Of a stretch of DNA of 64,000 bases, positions 19,835-25,304 are shown one piece after another. Made by a program: the position numbers and the translations under genes. How positions within the stretch are numbered: position 1 is the first letter of the stretch; each line of letters opens with the position of its first letter. The stretch spans positions 448,001 through 512,000 of the forward strand of contig CAVVUN010000002.1 of NCBI GenBank assembly GCA_963751455.1, given 5' to 3'. This stretch comes from Nitrospirota bacterium. Its GTDB lineage: Bacteria; Nitrospirota; UBA9217. Under the pieces are notes generated by a model. That model was not told the DNA's origin, made no database searches, and saw nothing but the letters and a program-made list of their open reading frames with translations.

Positions 19835-20767
19835 TCAAGCTCCAACAGCACTGAGCGTATCATTCATGGTCCTTATGTCTTCAACATTCAGTATTTTTGC
19901 TTCCCGTGCGATTCGTTTTACGAGGCCGGAAAGCACTTTACCAGGTCCGATTTCGATAAAGGTATCGAAGCCTTCGGCAACCAGGTTCTTAATCGAGTCT
20001 TCCCAATAGAGCGGAGCGCTGATTTGTCTTACGAGCGATTGCCTGAGTTCGGATGCGGCTTTCAGGAACTTCGCATCTGCGTTGTTAACGAGTGGAATGC
20101 GAAGATCGGCGATCGATATTTTTTCCAATTCTTTTGCCAGCCGCTCGCCAGCCTGTTCCATCATGCCGCAGTGCGACGGGACGCTTACAGAAAGAGGCAC
20201 TACTTTTTTAGCTCCTGCCGATTTTGCCAGTTCCATTGCCTTTTCAACTGCTTTTTTTTCACCGGCAATGACGATTTGACCGGGGCTGTTATAATTTGCA
20301 GGGGCAACTATACCATTTTTAGCAGCTTCAAGGCAAGTTTTTTCTACGTCCTGCCGCTCCATTCCAAGGACGGCTGCCATGAGACCGGCGCCTGCGGGAA
20401 CCGCTTCCTGCATGTACCGGCCGCGTTTTTGAACGAGAGAAACGGCGTCCACGAAATTAAACCCGCCTGCAGCGGTTATCGCCGTATATTCACCGAGGCT
20501 GTGCCCGGCAACGGCTGCAGCGGAAAGGCCGCGACGCTCGAGCGGACGAAGAATCGCGATGCTCGCCGTAAGGATTGCCGGCTGCGTGTTCTCGGTCTGG
20601 TTCAGTTTTTCAACGGGGCCCTGCAGGCACAGTTCAGCCACATTGAAACCGAGCACCTGGCCGGCATGATCGAACACTTCCTTGGATTCAGGAAAATTTT
20701 CGATGAATTCCCTTGCCATGCCCGGGTATTGCGAGCCCTGGCCGGGAAAGATGAAGGCGATTTTCAT
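19835..20767 (-). CDS. fabD: Malonyl-CoA:ACP transacylase
   Basis: FPGQGSQ, GHSLGEY, VSVPSHC, EIGPGKVL. Confidence 0.97.
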   Translation of the reverse strand: MKIAFIFPGQGSQYPGMAREFIENFPESKEVFDHAGQVLGFNVAELCLQGPVEKLNQTENTQPAILTASIAILRPLERRGLSAAAVAGHSLGEYTAITAAGGFNFVDAVSLVQKRGRYMQEAVPAGAGLMAAVLGMERQDVEKTCLEAAKNGIVAPANYNSPGQIVIAGEKKAVEKAMELAKSAGAKKVVPLSVSVPSHCGMMEQAGERLAKELEKISIADLRIPLVNNADAKFLKAASELRQSLVRQISAPLYWEDSIKNLVAEGFDTFIEIGPGKVLSGLVKRIAREAKILNVEDIRTMNDTLSAVGA

Positions 20768-20792
20768 GTAGGTTCCAATCTCGATAAAGCTA

Positions 20793-20850
20793 TTGGACGC
20801 GGATTTTTGCTGATGACGCAGATTGAACGACAGCGTTTATCTGCGTCCAA
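20793..20850. repeat. Short 9/10-periodic palindrome
   Basis: TTGGACGCGGAT...GACGCAGAT...ATCTGCGTCCAA. Confidence 0.6.
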
Positions 20851-20857
20851 AAATTTT

Positions 20858-22051
20858 TTAGCCGCTTATTTCTTTGAACTTCCTGATCATGACCGGCAGA
20901 ACTTCCATCACGTCTCCCACGATGCCGTAGGTTGCGACGCTGAAGATCGGCGCATTCGGATCTTTATTGATGGCGACGATGACGTCCGAGGACTGCATGC
21001 CGGCCAGGTGCTGGATCGCCCCTGATATGCCTGCCGCGATATAGAGTTTGGGGCAGACCGTTTTCCCTGTCTGTCCGACCTGGTGCGAGTACGCGATCCA
21101 ACCCTCATCCACTGCTCCCCTGGTAGCGCCGATAGCGCCTCCGAGCGTCTTGGCAAGTTCCTGGAGCAGCTCGAAGTTCTTCGAGCAACCCATACCGCGC
21201 CCTCCGGCCACGATTACGTCGGCTTCACAGATATTGATTGTTTCGGTCAGTTCATCCACGGTCTTAAGGACCTTTGTCCGCATATCTGCCGCTGCCGTGA
21301 ATTTAAAGTCAATGACGTTGCCTTTCCGGGACGGGTCAGGCACGGCCTTTTTCATTACTTTATGCCTGACCGTTGCCATTTGAGGCCGGTGATTGGGGGA
21401 AACGATCGTCGCCATTATATTTCCCCCGAAGGCCGGGCGCGTCTGGTGCAGATTGCCGCTCTCCGGGTCTATATCAAGCATAGTGCAGTCGGCCGTAAGC
21501 CCGGTGTAGAGCTTTGCCGCAACTTTCGGAATGAATGAGCGACCGATCGCGGTTGCGCCGGCAAGGATGATCTCGGGCTTGTGGAGCGTTGCCAGATTTG
21601 TCAGGACTGCACTGTAGGAGTCGTCGTTAAAATCCTTGAGCGAGGGATCATCCGCAGCATAGACGGTGTCCGCGCCGTGCGCTATAAGCTCCAGGGCCTT
21701 ATCCTTGATCTTGTGACCGACAAGCACCGCGGAGAGCTTTGTTTTCCGCTTGTCTGCGAGCTTCCTTCCTTCGCCCAGCAGTTCGAGTGCAACACTTGAT
21801 ATGCAGCCCTTGTTCTGCTCGGCAAACACCCATACGCCTTTGTAAGCCGAAAGGTCCTTTGCCGCGGCAACCGGTTCTTCACCAATCCGCTCGATTGCTT
21901 TGAATTCGCAGGCTTCAACGCAGGCTCCGCACATTGTGCAGCTTTCCGTTATGAAGGCGCTGCCGTTGCGCATTTCGATTGCCCCGAAGGGGCAGGTCGA
22001 TACGCACGTTTCACATCCGGTACATTTGTCAATATCGACTTTGATGCTCAC
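20858..22051 (-). CDS. etfA: Electron transfer flavoprotein alpha subunit with N-terminal 2[4Fe-4S] ferredoxin domain
   Basis: [12 protein letters not shown] and [47 protein letters not shown]. Confidence 0.95.
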
Positions 22052-22990: not shown

Positions 22991-23024
22991 AATGGTTTTT
23001 CCTGGGTGTAATTTGGGTGTGTTT

Positions 23025-24182
23025 CTATTTCTGTCTCGTTGCTTCCCTGATCATGTCCAGGGCAACCACGTTGCGCTGGATCTGGTTCGTGCCCTCGTAG
23101 ATTTGGAGGATCTTGGCGTCGCGCATCATTTTTTCTACGGGGTATTCTTTCATATAGCCCGACCCGCCCATGACCTGCACGGCGTCGATAGTTACCTTCA
23201 TGGCCGTGTCCGTGGCGAAAAGCTTGGCCATGGCGGAGGCCCGTGAAATGTCCTTAGCGCCGCTGTCGATGAACCGTGCAACGGCATACACGAGAGCACG
23301 CGCCGCTTCGGTCTGCGTCTGCATGTCCGCCAGCATGTGTTGAATTGCCTGGAACGAGGTAATGGGCTGGCCGAACTGTACCCGCTGTTTCGCGAATTTG
23401 ATGGCTTCATCGATTGCGCCCTGGGCCACGCCGACGCCCTGCGCGCCCACTCCCGTGCGGGAACTGTCCAGGGTCTTCATGGCCACAATGAAGCCCATGC
23501 CTTCTTTCGAGATCAGATTTTCTTTCGGGATGCGGCAATTATTGAAAATGAGCTCCGTGGTGGATGATGCGCGGATGCCCATTTTGTTCTCTTTCTTGCC
23601 GAAGGTGAACCCGGGCGTGCCTTTTTCAACGATAAACGCCGATGCTCCACGCGCCCCCTTGGACCTGTCCGTTATGGCAATGATCGTATAGATATCCGCC
23701 TCGCCGCCGTTCGTGATCCACTGCTTGGTGCCGTTGATTACGTATTCATTGCCGTCAAGTTTTGCCGTAGTCTGCACGCCGCTTGCGTCGCTGCCGGCAT
23801 TCGCTTCGGTAAGCCCGAATGCCACCAGCTTTTTCCCGGAAGCGATTTCAGGGAGATATTTTTTCTTCTGGGCGTCGGAGCCGTTAAGCAGGATAGGGTA
23901 GGTGCCCAGCGCATTTGCTGCAAAACTCGTGGAAACGCCGAGGCATGCCTTGGACAGTTCTTCAACCGCGATGTAGAGATCGAGTGCCTTTCTTCCGAGA
24001 CCGCCGTACTCCTCGGGGATATAGATGCCGAAGAGGTCCGCCTGTGCAATCGCTTTCATGATATCCGACGGGAATTTATTCTGTTCATCGAGTTCGGCGC
24101 GAACCGGCACGATCTTTTCCTGCGCGATCTGTCGTGCGAGGTCGCGGATCATGATCTGCTCTTCCGTCAGCAAGTAGTCCAT
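23025..24182 (-). CDS. Acyl-CoA dehydrogenase (butyryl-CoA dehydrogenase-like)
   Basis: AFGLTEANAGSDA, NGTKQWITNG, KMGIRASST, RVQFG, IYEGTNQIQR; GGAGG RBS before ATG 24182. Confidence 0.95.
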   Translation of the reverse strand: MDYLLTEEQIMIRDLARQIAQEKIVPVRAELDEQNKFPSDIMKAIAQADLFGIYIPEEYGGLGRKALDLYIAVEELSKACLGVSTSFAANALGTYPILLNGSDAQKKKYLPEIASGKKLVAFGLTEANAGSDASGVQTTAKLDGNEYVINGTKQWITNGGEADIYTIIAITDRSKGARGASAFIVEKGTPGFTFGKKENKMGIRASSTTELIFNNCRIPKENLISKEGMGFIVAMKTLDSSRTGVGAQGVGVAQGAIDEAIKFAKQRVQFGQPITSFQAIQHMLADMQTQTEAARALVYAVARFIDSGAKDISRASAMAKLFATDTAMKVTIDAVQVMGGSGYMKEYPVEKMMRDAKILQIYEGTNQIQRNVVALDMIREATRQK

Positions 24183-24323
24183 TGAAACCTCCAAGGATAA
24201 ATTTCAAAATCCCAAACCACAAATAATTCCAAGACGTTAAAATTAAATTTCAGATAACAGCGTTTGATATTTGGCTCTAAAATTGGAATTTATTATTTGA
24301 TGCTTGTCCAGAGATGCTTTCCG

Positions 24324-25304
24324 TCACCATCTTACCAGTGCAGACGCCCAGGTAAGACCTCCTCCAAACGCCTCAAATAAGATCAGATGGTTGTCCCTGA
24401 TCTTGCCTTCGCGAACGGCTTCATCAAGTGCCATCGGAATGGAAGCCGCGGAGGTATTGCCGTATTTCGGGAGCGTCAGCACGACTTTTTCCATGGACAT
24501 GTTAAGCCGCTGCGCCATGGCCTTGATGATCCTGAGGTTGGCCTGGTGAGGAACGAGATAATCTATGTCCTCCGGTTTTACTTTATTGTGGTCGAGCGCC
24601 TCCTGGACCACAGCTTCGAGCGACCTCACCGCAGATTTGAACGTCTCGTTGCCTTTCATCCTGATATAGTGCATTCGGTTCTGGATCGTATCGTGCGACG
24701 CCGGAGCCTGAGCACCACCCCCGGGAACATGAATCAGGTCCCCGAGCGACCCGTCGGAATGAAGATGCGTCGAAAGGATCCCGCGTTTCCCTGCGTGACG
24801 CTGGATCACAACGGCGCCCGCGCCGTCGCCGAACAGGATGCATGTGCCACGGTCCTCCCAGTCGGTAAAGCGCGACAATATTTCAGCGCCGACAAGGAGA
24901 ATGTTCTTGTATGCTTCCGATTTTATGAATGCATTTGCAACGGAAAGTCCGTAAATGAAGCCCGAACACGCGGCGGAGATGTCGAAGGCAACCGCCCTCT
25001 TCGCTCCCAGTTTTTCCTGAAGCACGCAACCCGTGCTCGGCAGGATCATGTCCGGCGTCATGGTGGCGACCAGTATCAGGTCCAGTTCATCTGCTCTGAG
25101 GCCCGCTGCTTTCAGCGCCTTCTTGGCCGCTTCATAAGCAAGATCGGAGGTTGATTGGTCCTTATCGGCGATCCTCCGTTCTTTGATGCCGGTCCGCTCG
25201 ATGATCCACTCATCACTCGTGTTGACCAGTTTTTCCAGATCATGATTCGTTATGATTTTTTTTGGGGCGTATGATCCGGTACCTGTTATCCGTGCATGGA
25301 TCAT
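24324..25304 (-). CDS. fabH: 3-oxoacyl-ACP synthase III
   Basis: AACSGF, FGDGAGA, PHQANLRI, GNTSAASIP, FGGGLTW. Confidence 0.97.
   Translation of the reverse strand: MIHARITGTGSYAPKKIITNHDLEKLVNTSDEWIIERTGIKERRIADKDQSTSDLAYEAAKKALKAAGLRADELDLILVATMTPDMILPSTGCVLQEKLGAKRAVAFDISAACSGFIYGLSVANAFIKSEAYKNILLVGAEILSRFTDWEDRGTCILFGDGAGAVVIQRHAGKRGILSTHLHSDGSLGDLIHVPGGGAQAPASHDTIQNRMHYIRMKGNETFKSAVRSLEAVVQEALDHNKVKPEDIDYLVPHQANLRIIKAMAQRLNMSMEKVVLTLPKYGNTSAASIPMALDEAVREGKIRDNHLILFEAFGGGLTWASALVRW

Follow-up and report, generated by a model that had tools for sequence, protein, structure and literature searches.

An acyl-CoA dehydrogenase–ETF module in the fatty-acid synthesis operon of Nitrospirota and other bacteria is a candidate electron-bifurcating enoyl-ACP reductase

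The window analysed here is a stretch of 64,000 nucleotides from a Nitrospirota bacterium of the UBA9217 lineage (GenBank assembly GCA_963751455.1, contig CAVVUN010000002.1, positions 448,001 to 512,000). It contains a type II fatty-acid synthesis (FAS II) operon in which genes for an acyl-CoA dehydrogenase (ACAD) family protein and for the two subunits of an electron-transferring flavoprotein (ETF), EtfB and a ferredoxin-fused EtfA, lie between fabH and fabD. The order on the minus strand is yceD-rpmF-plsX-fabH-ACAD-etfB-etfA-fabD-x-fabG-acpP-fabF-rnc; the gene order given in a preliminary description of this DNA held for every gene, and the fab genes passed their NCBIfam cut-offs. Based on sequence comparisons, we propose that the three proteins together are the enoyl-acyl carrier protein (ACP) reductase of FAS II, a reading to which we assign a probability of roughly 0.7. 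If they have this role, analogy with related complexes makes it quite likely that they bifurcate electrons. The broader claim is that they represent a new and widespread class of enoyl-ACP reductase, combining an ACAD fold with a bifurcating, ferredoxin-fused ETF, which would deliver reduced ferredoxin each time it closes the elongation cycle, as it would in roughly one of two sampled Desulfobacterota and in anaerobic members of several further phyla; for this joint claim we put the odds only a little above even.

Searches of the host genome (5.7 Mb, 100% complete, 5.37% contaminated) returned none of the known enoyl-ACP reductases looked for. A profile run over 21 candidates from the whole genome gave no FabI at E ≤ 1e-30, and the same model was positive in 8 of 14 control genomes. 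Short-chain dehydrogenase/reductase (SDR) matches numbered 19; for the 16 that were classified, including the fabG of the window, FabI was never among the best families, and the best FabL score displayed was 108 for a cut-off of 328. FabV was not found in the genome; an initial search had no positive control, and later searches were positive in two genomes (G048 and G224). The sole full-length protein of the nitronate monooxygenase (NMO) family scored 105 against the FabK cut-off of 453 (TIGR03151; E 3e-30 to the FabK model) and matched Helicobacter pylori FabX at E 3e-65. Six medium-chain dehydrogenase/reductase (MDR) proteins were found, four of them alcohol/aldehyde dehydrogenase-like or without a family and two PIG3-like, and a search for FabMG, run without a positive control, gave no match in five genomes. 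Thus, the earlier remark that the window holds no fabI, fabK, fabV or fabL extends to the whole genome, where the FabX-like protein was the only candidate of this kind.

The position of the module is conserved. In a sample of 41 Nitrospirota genomes, 24 of them from the host family, the ACAD was present with 85–94% identity in all 24 host-family genomes, in one of them only as a fragment at a contig end; three other families contributed four more genomes that have it, at 73–79%. The ACAD gene directly followed fabH in all 19 host-family genomes that were fetched and in both genomes of a second family (f3). In two of these 19 (L064 and L066), etfA was followed by an acetyl-CoA synthetase gene, a divergent fabD (39–42%) and succinyl-CoA ligase genes, and in G027 and G036 the ACAD gene stood alone while etfB-etfA-fabD formed a cluster of its own, preceded by acpS in G036. 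In G004, where a FabK-like gene is present too, the ACAD appeared split, as if decaying, but a 10-base scaffold gap accounts for this. FabI was found in none of 29 ACAD carriers of the phylum, compared with 10 of 12 non-carriers. The other two non-carriers (G025 and G034) carry, in the order fabH-fabK-fabD, a FabK that exceeds the TIGR03151 cut-off, and in G030, which also has FabI, a FabK-like gene occupies this slot. The presence of FabK in the slot of these three genomes indicates that the three-gene module and FabK exchange in one position.

A second phylum gave a similar picture. We searched 151 genomes of Desulfobacterota, the phylum of a Desulfobulbaceae record, for which at least 90% completeness was requested; up to 12 candidates were scored per genome, so that some clade members may be missed. 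Exactly one ACAD of the clade (E ≤ 1e-140) was found in 74 of the 151. At E ≤ 1e-85, FabI was detected in 0 of 74 carriers compared with 19 of 77 non-carriers, and at E ≤ 1e-68 in 1 of 74 compared with 21 of 77; Fisher tests gave p values near 1e-6, which overstate the case because the compared genomes are kin and not independent. FabK at E ≤ 1e-110 was found in one carrier, outside the operon slot, and in eight of the 77 non-carriers, in all eight within the slot. FabV was found in a single genome, a carrier. No FabI (E ≤ 1e-68), FabK-like or FabV match was obtained in 50 of the 74 carriers. Among 40 carrier loci picked for long contigs, the fab operon housed the ACAD gene in 37, and etfB was its neighbour in 27 of these; the three off-operon loci correspond to a divergent sister branch in the tree. 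A divergent sister branch of the ACAD (L325, L326 and L327; 57–60% identity) comes from small genomes whose ETF has no ferredoxin domain, and in one of the three loci a fabF-like gene faces the ACAD gene on the other strand.

A scan of GTDB genomes confirmed at least 572 relatives among at least 599 candidate stretches, of which 80 were kept. With rpmF and acpS counted as operon genes, one or more fab-operon genes lay within 4.5 kb in 40 of these 80 loci, and at least two in 34. The linked loci belong to Nitrospirota, several lineages of Desulfobacterota, one Actinomycetota record and three Omnitrophota records, those of Omnitrophota having the ACAD gene placed after fabF or rnc. Among the loci without such linkage are those of Elusimicrobia, Dehalococcoidia, Bacillota and many Thermodesulfovibrionales. 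A gene of 446 aa ahead of many Thermodesulfovibrionales ACADs, suspected to encode a biotin carboxylase, encodes PmbA/TldD, and the genes taken for thiolase and synthase upstream of the ACAD in Dehalococcoidales proved to encode an aminotransferase and other proteins. The genomes of 50 of the 80 loci, of unstated completeness, were searched: they gave no strong FabI match (three weak), 12 FabK-like, one FabV and 12 FabX-like matches, and 24 of them showed none of the four. Because the gene order recurs across the host family and in other phyla, placement of the module in the fab operon is not due to chance. Both the conservation of synteny and the anticorrelation with known reductases proposed as checks in the preliminary description were therefore borne out, the latter for FabI and with exceptions discussed below.

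The FabX-like protein offers the best surviving alternative, namely that this FMN/[4Fe-4S] protein, or some other enzyme, works in the reducing direction as the true reductase while the ACAD-ETF module serves another lipid step; we consider this unlikely. A single copy is encoded in the host genome (L001:1489-2589; G000 C15:488685-489782), its cysteine pattern is unlike that of H. pylori FabX, and 23 of 24 host-family genomes as well as G026, G027, G035 and G036 have NMO matches, which are FabX-like wherever this was checked. According to the available text of PMC8626469, FabX and FabK perform the same chemistry in opposite directions, and FabX is a dehydrogenase/isomerase that carries a [4Fe-4S] domain in place of the NAD(P)H domain of FabK. 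Seven Desulfobacterota with an empty slot and no ACAD likewise imply that some unrecognised reductase exists. However, FabX-like genes are also found in genomes with FabI (G028, G037 and G091) and with a slot FabK (G025), only 12 of the 50 ACAD carriers from the cross-phylum loci have one although 24 lack any known candidate, the host gene lies on a contig other than that of the fab operon, and the lack of an NAD(P)H domain in FabX also argues against it.

Judged by residue criteria from the literature, the ETF subunits belong to the bifurcating type. Gly123 of EtfB aligns with Gly123 of the Acidaminococcus fermentans protein, a residue that leaves room for the β-FAD and serves as a criterion for bifurcating ETFs (available text of PMC12630350). 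Arg205 of EtfA aligns with LctC Arg205, which is placed at N5 of the β-FAD, and Arg87, Phe89 and Gly91 of EtfB reproduce the Arg-x-Phe-x-Gly NAD site of LctB. As far as the accessible parts of PMC12630350 and PMC9232219 go, these residues are needed for β-FAD binding, bifurcation and NAD binding. In related loci, the strict Gly123 pattern was found in 72 of 78 EtfB sequences, with Gly also displayed by the remaining six, and the strict Arg205 and Arg-x-Phe-x-Gly patterns in 62 of 72 EtfA and 69 of 78 EtfB sequences, respectively. EtfA also carries two CxxCxxCxxxC motifs (residues 10–20 and 38–48), and this pair is present in 65 of the 72 EtfA sequences. The Clostridium propionicum EtfABs are described as non-bifurcating in the available text of PMC9232219, so that sequence type alone is no proof of bifurcation. 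The residue signature agrees with the earlier suggestion that this complex bifurcates electrons, and bifurcation itself is a prediction.

The first protein of the module belongs to the acyl-CoA dehydrogenase family: PF02771, PF02770 and PF00441 all exceeded their cut-offs, and its structure model (pLDDT 93.7) superimposes on the butyryl-CoA dehydrogenase 4L1F with a TM score of 0.96. Glu363, within a YEG motif, is invariant among 77 aligned clade members, and this motif is given as typical of straight-chain ACADs in the available text of PMC8360864. In a tree, 127 members grouped together with none of 114 outside ACADs among them (FastTree support 0.905), and members without fab linkage were nested among linked ones. 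The pocket helix aligns without gaps to that of medium-chain acyl-CoA dehydrogenase (MCAD), with Ser84 and Ala88 at the positions of MCAD Gln95 and Glu99. Small residues there presumably deepen the pocket, as we take them to do in very-long-chain acyl-CoA dehydrogenase (VLCAD), and would suit chains of up to C16. Lys or Arg is fixed at positions 173, 175, 178, 226 and 236, all five together in 114 of 130 clade members as against 2 of 114 other ACADs; those at 173, 175, 226 and 236 are gains in the clade. The five positions were chosen post hoc with the alignment already in view, and that they lie at the thioester entrance is our assumption rather than a computed result, both of which lessen their weight. 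Conversely, where MCAD has Arg388, a residue on its surface that contacts the CoA substrate (available text of PMC3981736), a basic residue is found in 7 of 130 clade members as against 82 of 114 other ACADs. At the level of sequence, these shifts fit a switch from CoA to the acidic ACP. A complex prediction with the ACAD dimer, ACP and FAD scored 0.00 and was used neither for nor against this idea.

A different role at the CoA level was proposed in the preliminary description, the supply of short or branched acyl-CoA primers for FabH, and recycling of acyl-CoA in the manner of Bcd-EtfAB would be a variant of it. The closest solved structures are indeed butyryl-CoA dehydrogenases (51–53% identity, TM scores of 0.95–0.96), in many operons fabH is the gene just before that of the ACAD, a few loci have ilvC or ilvE nearby, and the two host-family genomes mentioned above have an acetyl-CoA synthetase gene after etfA. 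However, four carriers (G010, G024, G027 and G036; 100, 97, 100 and 100% complete), each with a single ACAD match and FabZ, gave no crotonase, FabI or FabV match, and the thiolase model gave only cross-matches of the FabH/FabF type, so that the thiolase and crotonase of the Bcd-EtfAB butyrate context are missing from them. Five more carriers from three phyla gave no crotonase match and thiolase in one; MaoC-type hydratases and CoA-transferases lay outside these searches. Without thiolase and crotonase there is no evident enoyl-CoA, whereas FabZ makes enoyl-ACP in each cycle, leaving enoyl-ACP as the evident substrate. Thiolase and crotonase are present in the host genome, but beside another ACAD or β-oxidation genes; they include a separate thiolase-ACAD-ETF cluster with a distant ETF (32–34% identity), which serves catabolism. 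Furthermore, the ACAD is retained in operons without fabH (e.g. L169, L174–L178 and L288–L292), its YEG motif is that of straight-chain enzymes, and a CoA-level role would leave both the missing reductase and the FabK exchange unexplained. The primer idea is thus disfavoured, and we regard a CoA-level function in general as improbable.

We give much less credence to the possibility that the module oxidises acyl-ACP, by backtracking like FabX towards unsaturated fatty acids, or that the ETF is an electron sink for another lipid enzyme. ACAD-family enzymes do oxidise carrier-bound acyl groups in specialised pathways, as with MbtN, RedW, PigA and prolyl-ACP dehydrogenase; however, such a role would need a separate reductase, which is mostly missing in carriers, passing electrons from an acyl thioester (about −10 mV) to NAD+ (−320 mV) would consume reduced ferredoxin, and the FabK exchange would again be left unexplained. 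That the ACAD and etf genes are mere passengers of a housekeeping operon that also holds rpmF, rnc and an accessory gene, as the half of cross-phylum loci without a fab neighbour might suggest, is very improbable, since the ACAD is single-copy and highly conserved in the host family, occupies the FabK slot across phyla and is anticorrelated with FabI, and since genes of the module are relinked to fabD and acpS or to fabF in rearranged loci.

For the proposed enoyl-ACP reductase, the following mechanism would apply, modelled on the chemistry of Bcd-EtfAB and CarCDE. FabZ would make trans-2-enoyl-ACP, the ACP would dock on the ACAD, and the reduced FAD would pass a hydride to C3 while Glu363 protonates C2. 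NADH would reduce the β-FAD of EtfB, from which one electron would travel via the α-FAD to the ACAD and the other via the fused [4Fe-4S] domain to ferredoxin. Two such rounds would convert enoyl-ACP, 2 NADH and oxidised ferredoxin to acyl-ACP, 2 NAD+ and reduced ferredoxin (two electrons).

Several observations weigh against this proposal. For 40 of the 80 cross-phylum loci, no fab gene lies within 4.5 kb. If divergent FabI-family SDRs of secondary clusters are included, FabI counts in Desulfobacterota become 8 of 74 carriers and 24 of 77 non-carriers, and FabK-like paralogues (E ≤ 1e-60) are frequent in both groups (22 of 74 carriers and 41 of 77 non-carriers). G048 and G224 have FabV as well as the ACAD. 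G091 has a true FabI together with a slot ACAD, and two Dehalococcoidales genomes have FabK in the slot and the ACAD and etf genes elsewhere; these cases of coexistence indicate that some clade members are redundant or differently employed. Ten of the 37 slot ACADs of Desulfobacterota have no adjacent etf genes and may take electrons differently. In the host, the two PIG3-family MDR proteins may be alternative enoyl reductases. Finally, 20 of the 77 ACAD-negative Desulfobacterota also gave no FabI, FabK-like or FabV match. Of ten that were examined, seven have a fab operon that is intact and whose slot is empty (L328, L329, L332, L334, L335, L336 and L338; FabL and FabX-like were not among the profiles searched there), one has a cut ACAD in the slot and two gave no fab operon. 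It follows that there must be other, unrecognised enoyl reductases; the case built on absence loses weight through this, whereas that from slot exchange is untouched. In sum, replacement of FabI or FabK by this complex, as first suggested, agrees with the pathway inventory through FabK slot exchange, conserved order, the lack of a canonical reductase and FabI anticorrelation, and is qualified by exceptions to that anticorrelation and by the FabX-like alternative. Several carriers (loci L268, L269, L270, L271 and L272) have divergent FabI-family SDRs in secondary clusters with fabZ, fabG, acpP, fabF or fabH.

Table 1. Genes and a promoter-like site of the fatty-acid synthesis operon (coordinates in the 64,000-nucleotide window).
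Feature	Position	Strand	Remarks
Sigma-70-type promoter-like site, upstream of yceD	27265..27293	-	TTGACA-17-TATAAT, 12/12 consensus; candidate operon start
yceD	26719..27315	-	Longest open reading frame (ORF); true start probably near 27234
rpmF (ribosomal protein L32)	26395..26577	-	TIGR01031 over cut-off
plsX	25301..26312	-	Longest ORF 25301-26263; passes NCBIfam cut-off
fabH	24324..25304	-	TIGR00747 over cut-off
ACAD-family flavoprotein, 385 aa	23025..24182	-	YEG motif, catalytic Glu363; proposed enoyl-ACP-reducing subunit
etfB, bifurcating type by residue criteria	22099..22884	-	Gly123; Arg87/Phe89/Gly91
etfA with N-terminal 2x[4Fe-4S] ferredoxin domain	20858..22051	-	Arg205; nearest solved protein CarE
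fabD	19835..20767	-	TIGR00128 over cut-off
x, small accessory gene	19390..19863	-	Predicted exported, OB-fold-like; probable start 19803
fabG	18611..19351	-	TIGR01830 over cut-off
acpP, proposed substrate carrier	18296..18532	-	Passes NCBIfam cut-off
fabF	16811..18067	-	TIGR03150 over cut-off
rnc	16066..16761	-	TIGR02191 over cut-off

Gaps within the cluster range from −4 to 243 nt, and a pattern scan of the minus strand found no terminator-like site in any gap down to rnc. The promoter pattern matched 13 sites where 11.4 were expected, that upstream of yceD being the sole perfect one (Table 1). GC content and third-position GC of the ACAD, etfB and etfA genes equal those of the flanking fab genes, which argues against recent horizontal insertion, and a protein search, which returned only very close relatives, placed the closest named proteins to the ACAD in Nitrospirota. 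Protein x gave no Pfam or NCBIfam match, its atlas neighbours scored 0.93–0.94, and its gene was found in 2 of 15 relatives with a visible fabD-fabG junction; it is outside the conserved module. The first codons of plsX (26263-26312, minus strand) are out of frame with its body at a G run. Because splits affect further genes of the assembly as well (SDRs on C6 and C2, an ACAD and a thiolase on C15), a homopolymer or assembly error is more probable than decay. Related short inverted repeats that could form hairpins lie in the gaps after the ACAD gene (22885-23024) and after etfA (20768-20857), and the yceD-rpmF gap has an inverted repeat unlike these; they may be REP-like elements or RNA-processing sites. 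Elsewhere in the window, an Elp3-like radical SAM gene (14994-16088, minus strand) overlaps rnc and is conserved downstream of it in the host family. The plus strand encodes a radical SAM/SPASM protein (13152-14597), seven tRNA genes (42236-44719; Pro, three Arg, His, Lys and Leu) and an ORF of 1464 aa (8158-12552) whose C-terminal third resembles pyruvate phosphate dikinase and whose ~970 N-terminal residues gave no family match at the thresholds used.

Among characterised systems, caffeyl-CoA reductase-Etf of Acetobacterium woodii (CarCDE, PDB 6FAH) has the same three subunits as the module. Among solved proteins, EtfA is matched best by CarE, along its full length and with the two-cluster ferredoxin domain included (E 6e-133), and EtfB by CarD (E 9e-75), whereas CarC ranks only 23rd for the ACAD (E 8e-95). 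CarCDE is respiratory and acts on a CoA ester, whereas the module lies in a biosynthetic operon with fab neighbours instead of caffeyl-CoA activating genes. Bcd-EtfAB (Clostridioides difficile 5OL2; A. fermentans 4L1F and 4KPU) shares the catalytic Glu and the β-FAD residues, but its EtfA lacks the ferredoxin domain, and the pocket helix of the module ACAD, gapless against medium-chain enzymes, is one residue shorter than that of Bcd. Acryloyl-CoA reductase of C. propionicum (AcrABC, NF042970-042972), another ACAD-ETF reductase, was the best NCBIfam match for the ACAD and EtfA and the second for EtfB, although all three subunits missed its cut-offs (476/640, 248/475 and 366/600 bits). As judged from their names, MbtN, RedW, PigA and prolyl-ACP dehydrogenase (4IRN) provide a precedent for the ACAD fold acting on carrier-bound thioesters; all are dehydrogenases of specialised metabolites and none is a core FAS II reductase, and the module ACAD scores 88–270 bits against their models, for cut-offs of 650–900. 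FabK (enoyl-ACP reductase II, TIGR03151) shares the slot and the proposed reaction and is also a flavoprotein, but it has no sequence or fold relation to the ACAD and no ferredoxin coupling; it is a single FMN-containing TIM-barrel protein that uses NAD(P)H directly (available text of PMC8626469).

The recognised bacterial enoyl-ACP reductases listed in the accessible part of PMC6817880, FabI, FabL, FabL2, FabV and FabK, are of SDR or NMO type. The module proteins belong to the ACAD and ETF families, outside the SDR and NMO TIM-barrel families of FabI, FabL, FabV and FabK, and a full-text literature search, with subscription journals mostly outside its range, returned no paper that describes an ACAD-ETF module within a fab operon or an ETF-dependent enoyl-ACP reductase. 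If our reading is correct, the essential enoyl-ACP reduction step would have a third fold, a pathway hole would be filled in many sulfate reducers, syntrophs and uncultured anaerobes, and thousands of "butyryl-CoA dehydrogenase" genes now read as fatty-acid or butyrate catabolism would need re-annotation. It would also place electron bifurcation within a core membrane-lipid pathway. By simple arithmetic with potentials of about −10, −320 and −450 mV, which assumes that enoyl-ACP behaves like crotonyl-CoA, reduction of the FabI type loses ~60 kJ/mol as heat, while the bifurcating reaction would still release about 35 kJ/mol (~−35 kJ/mol) and yield reduced ferredoxin in addition.

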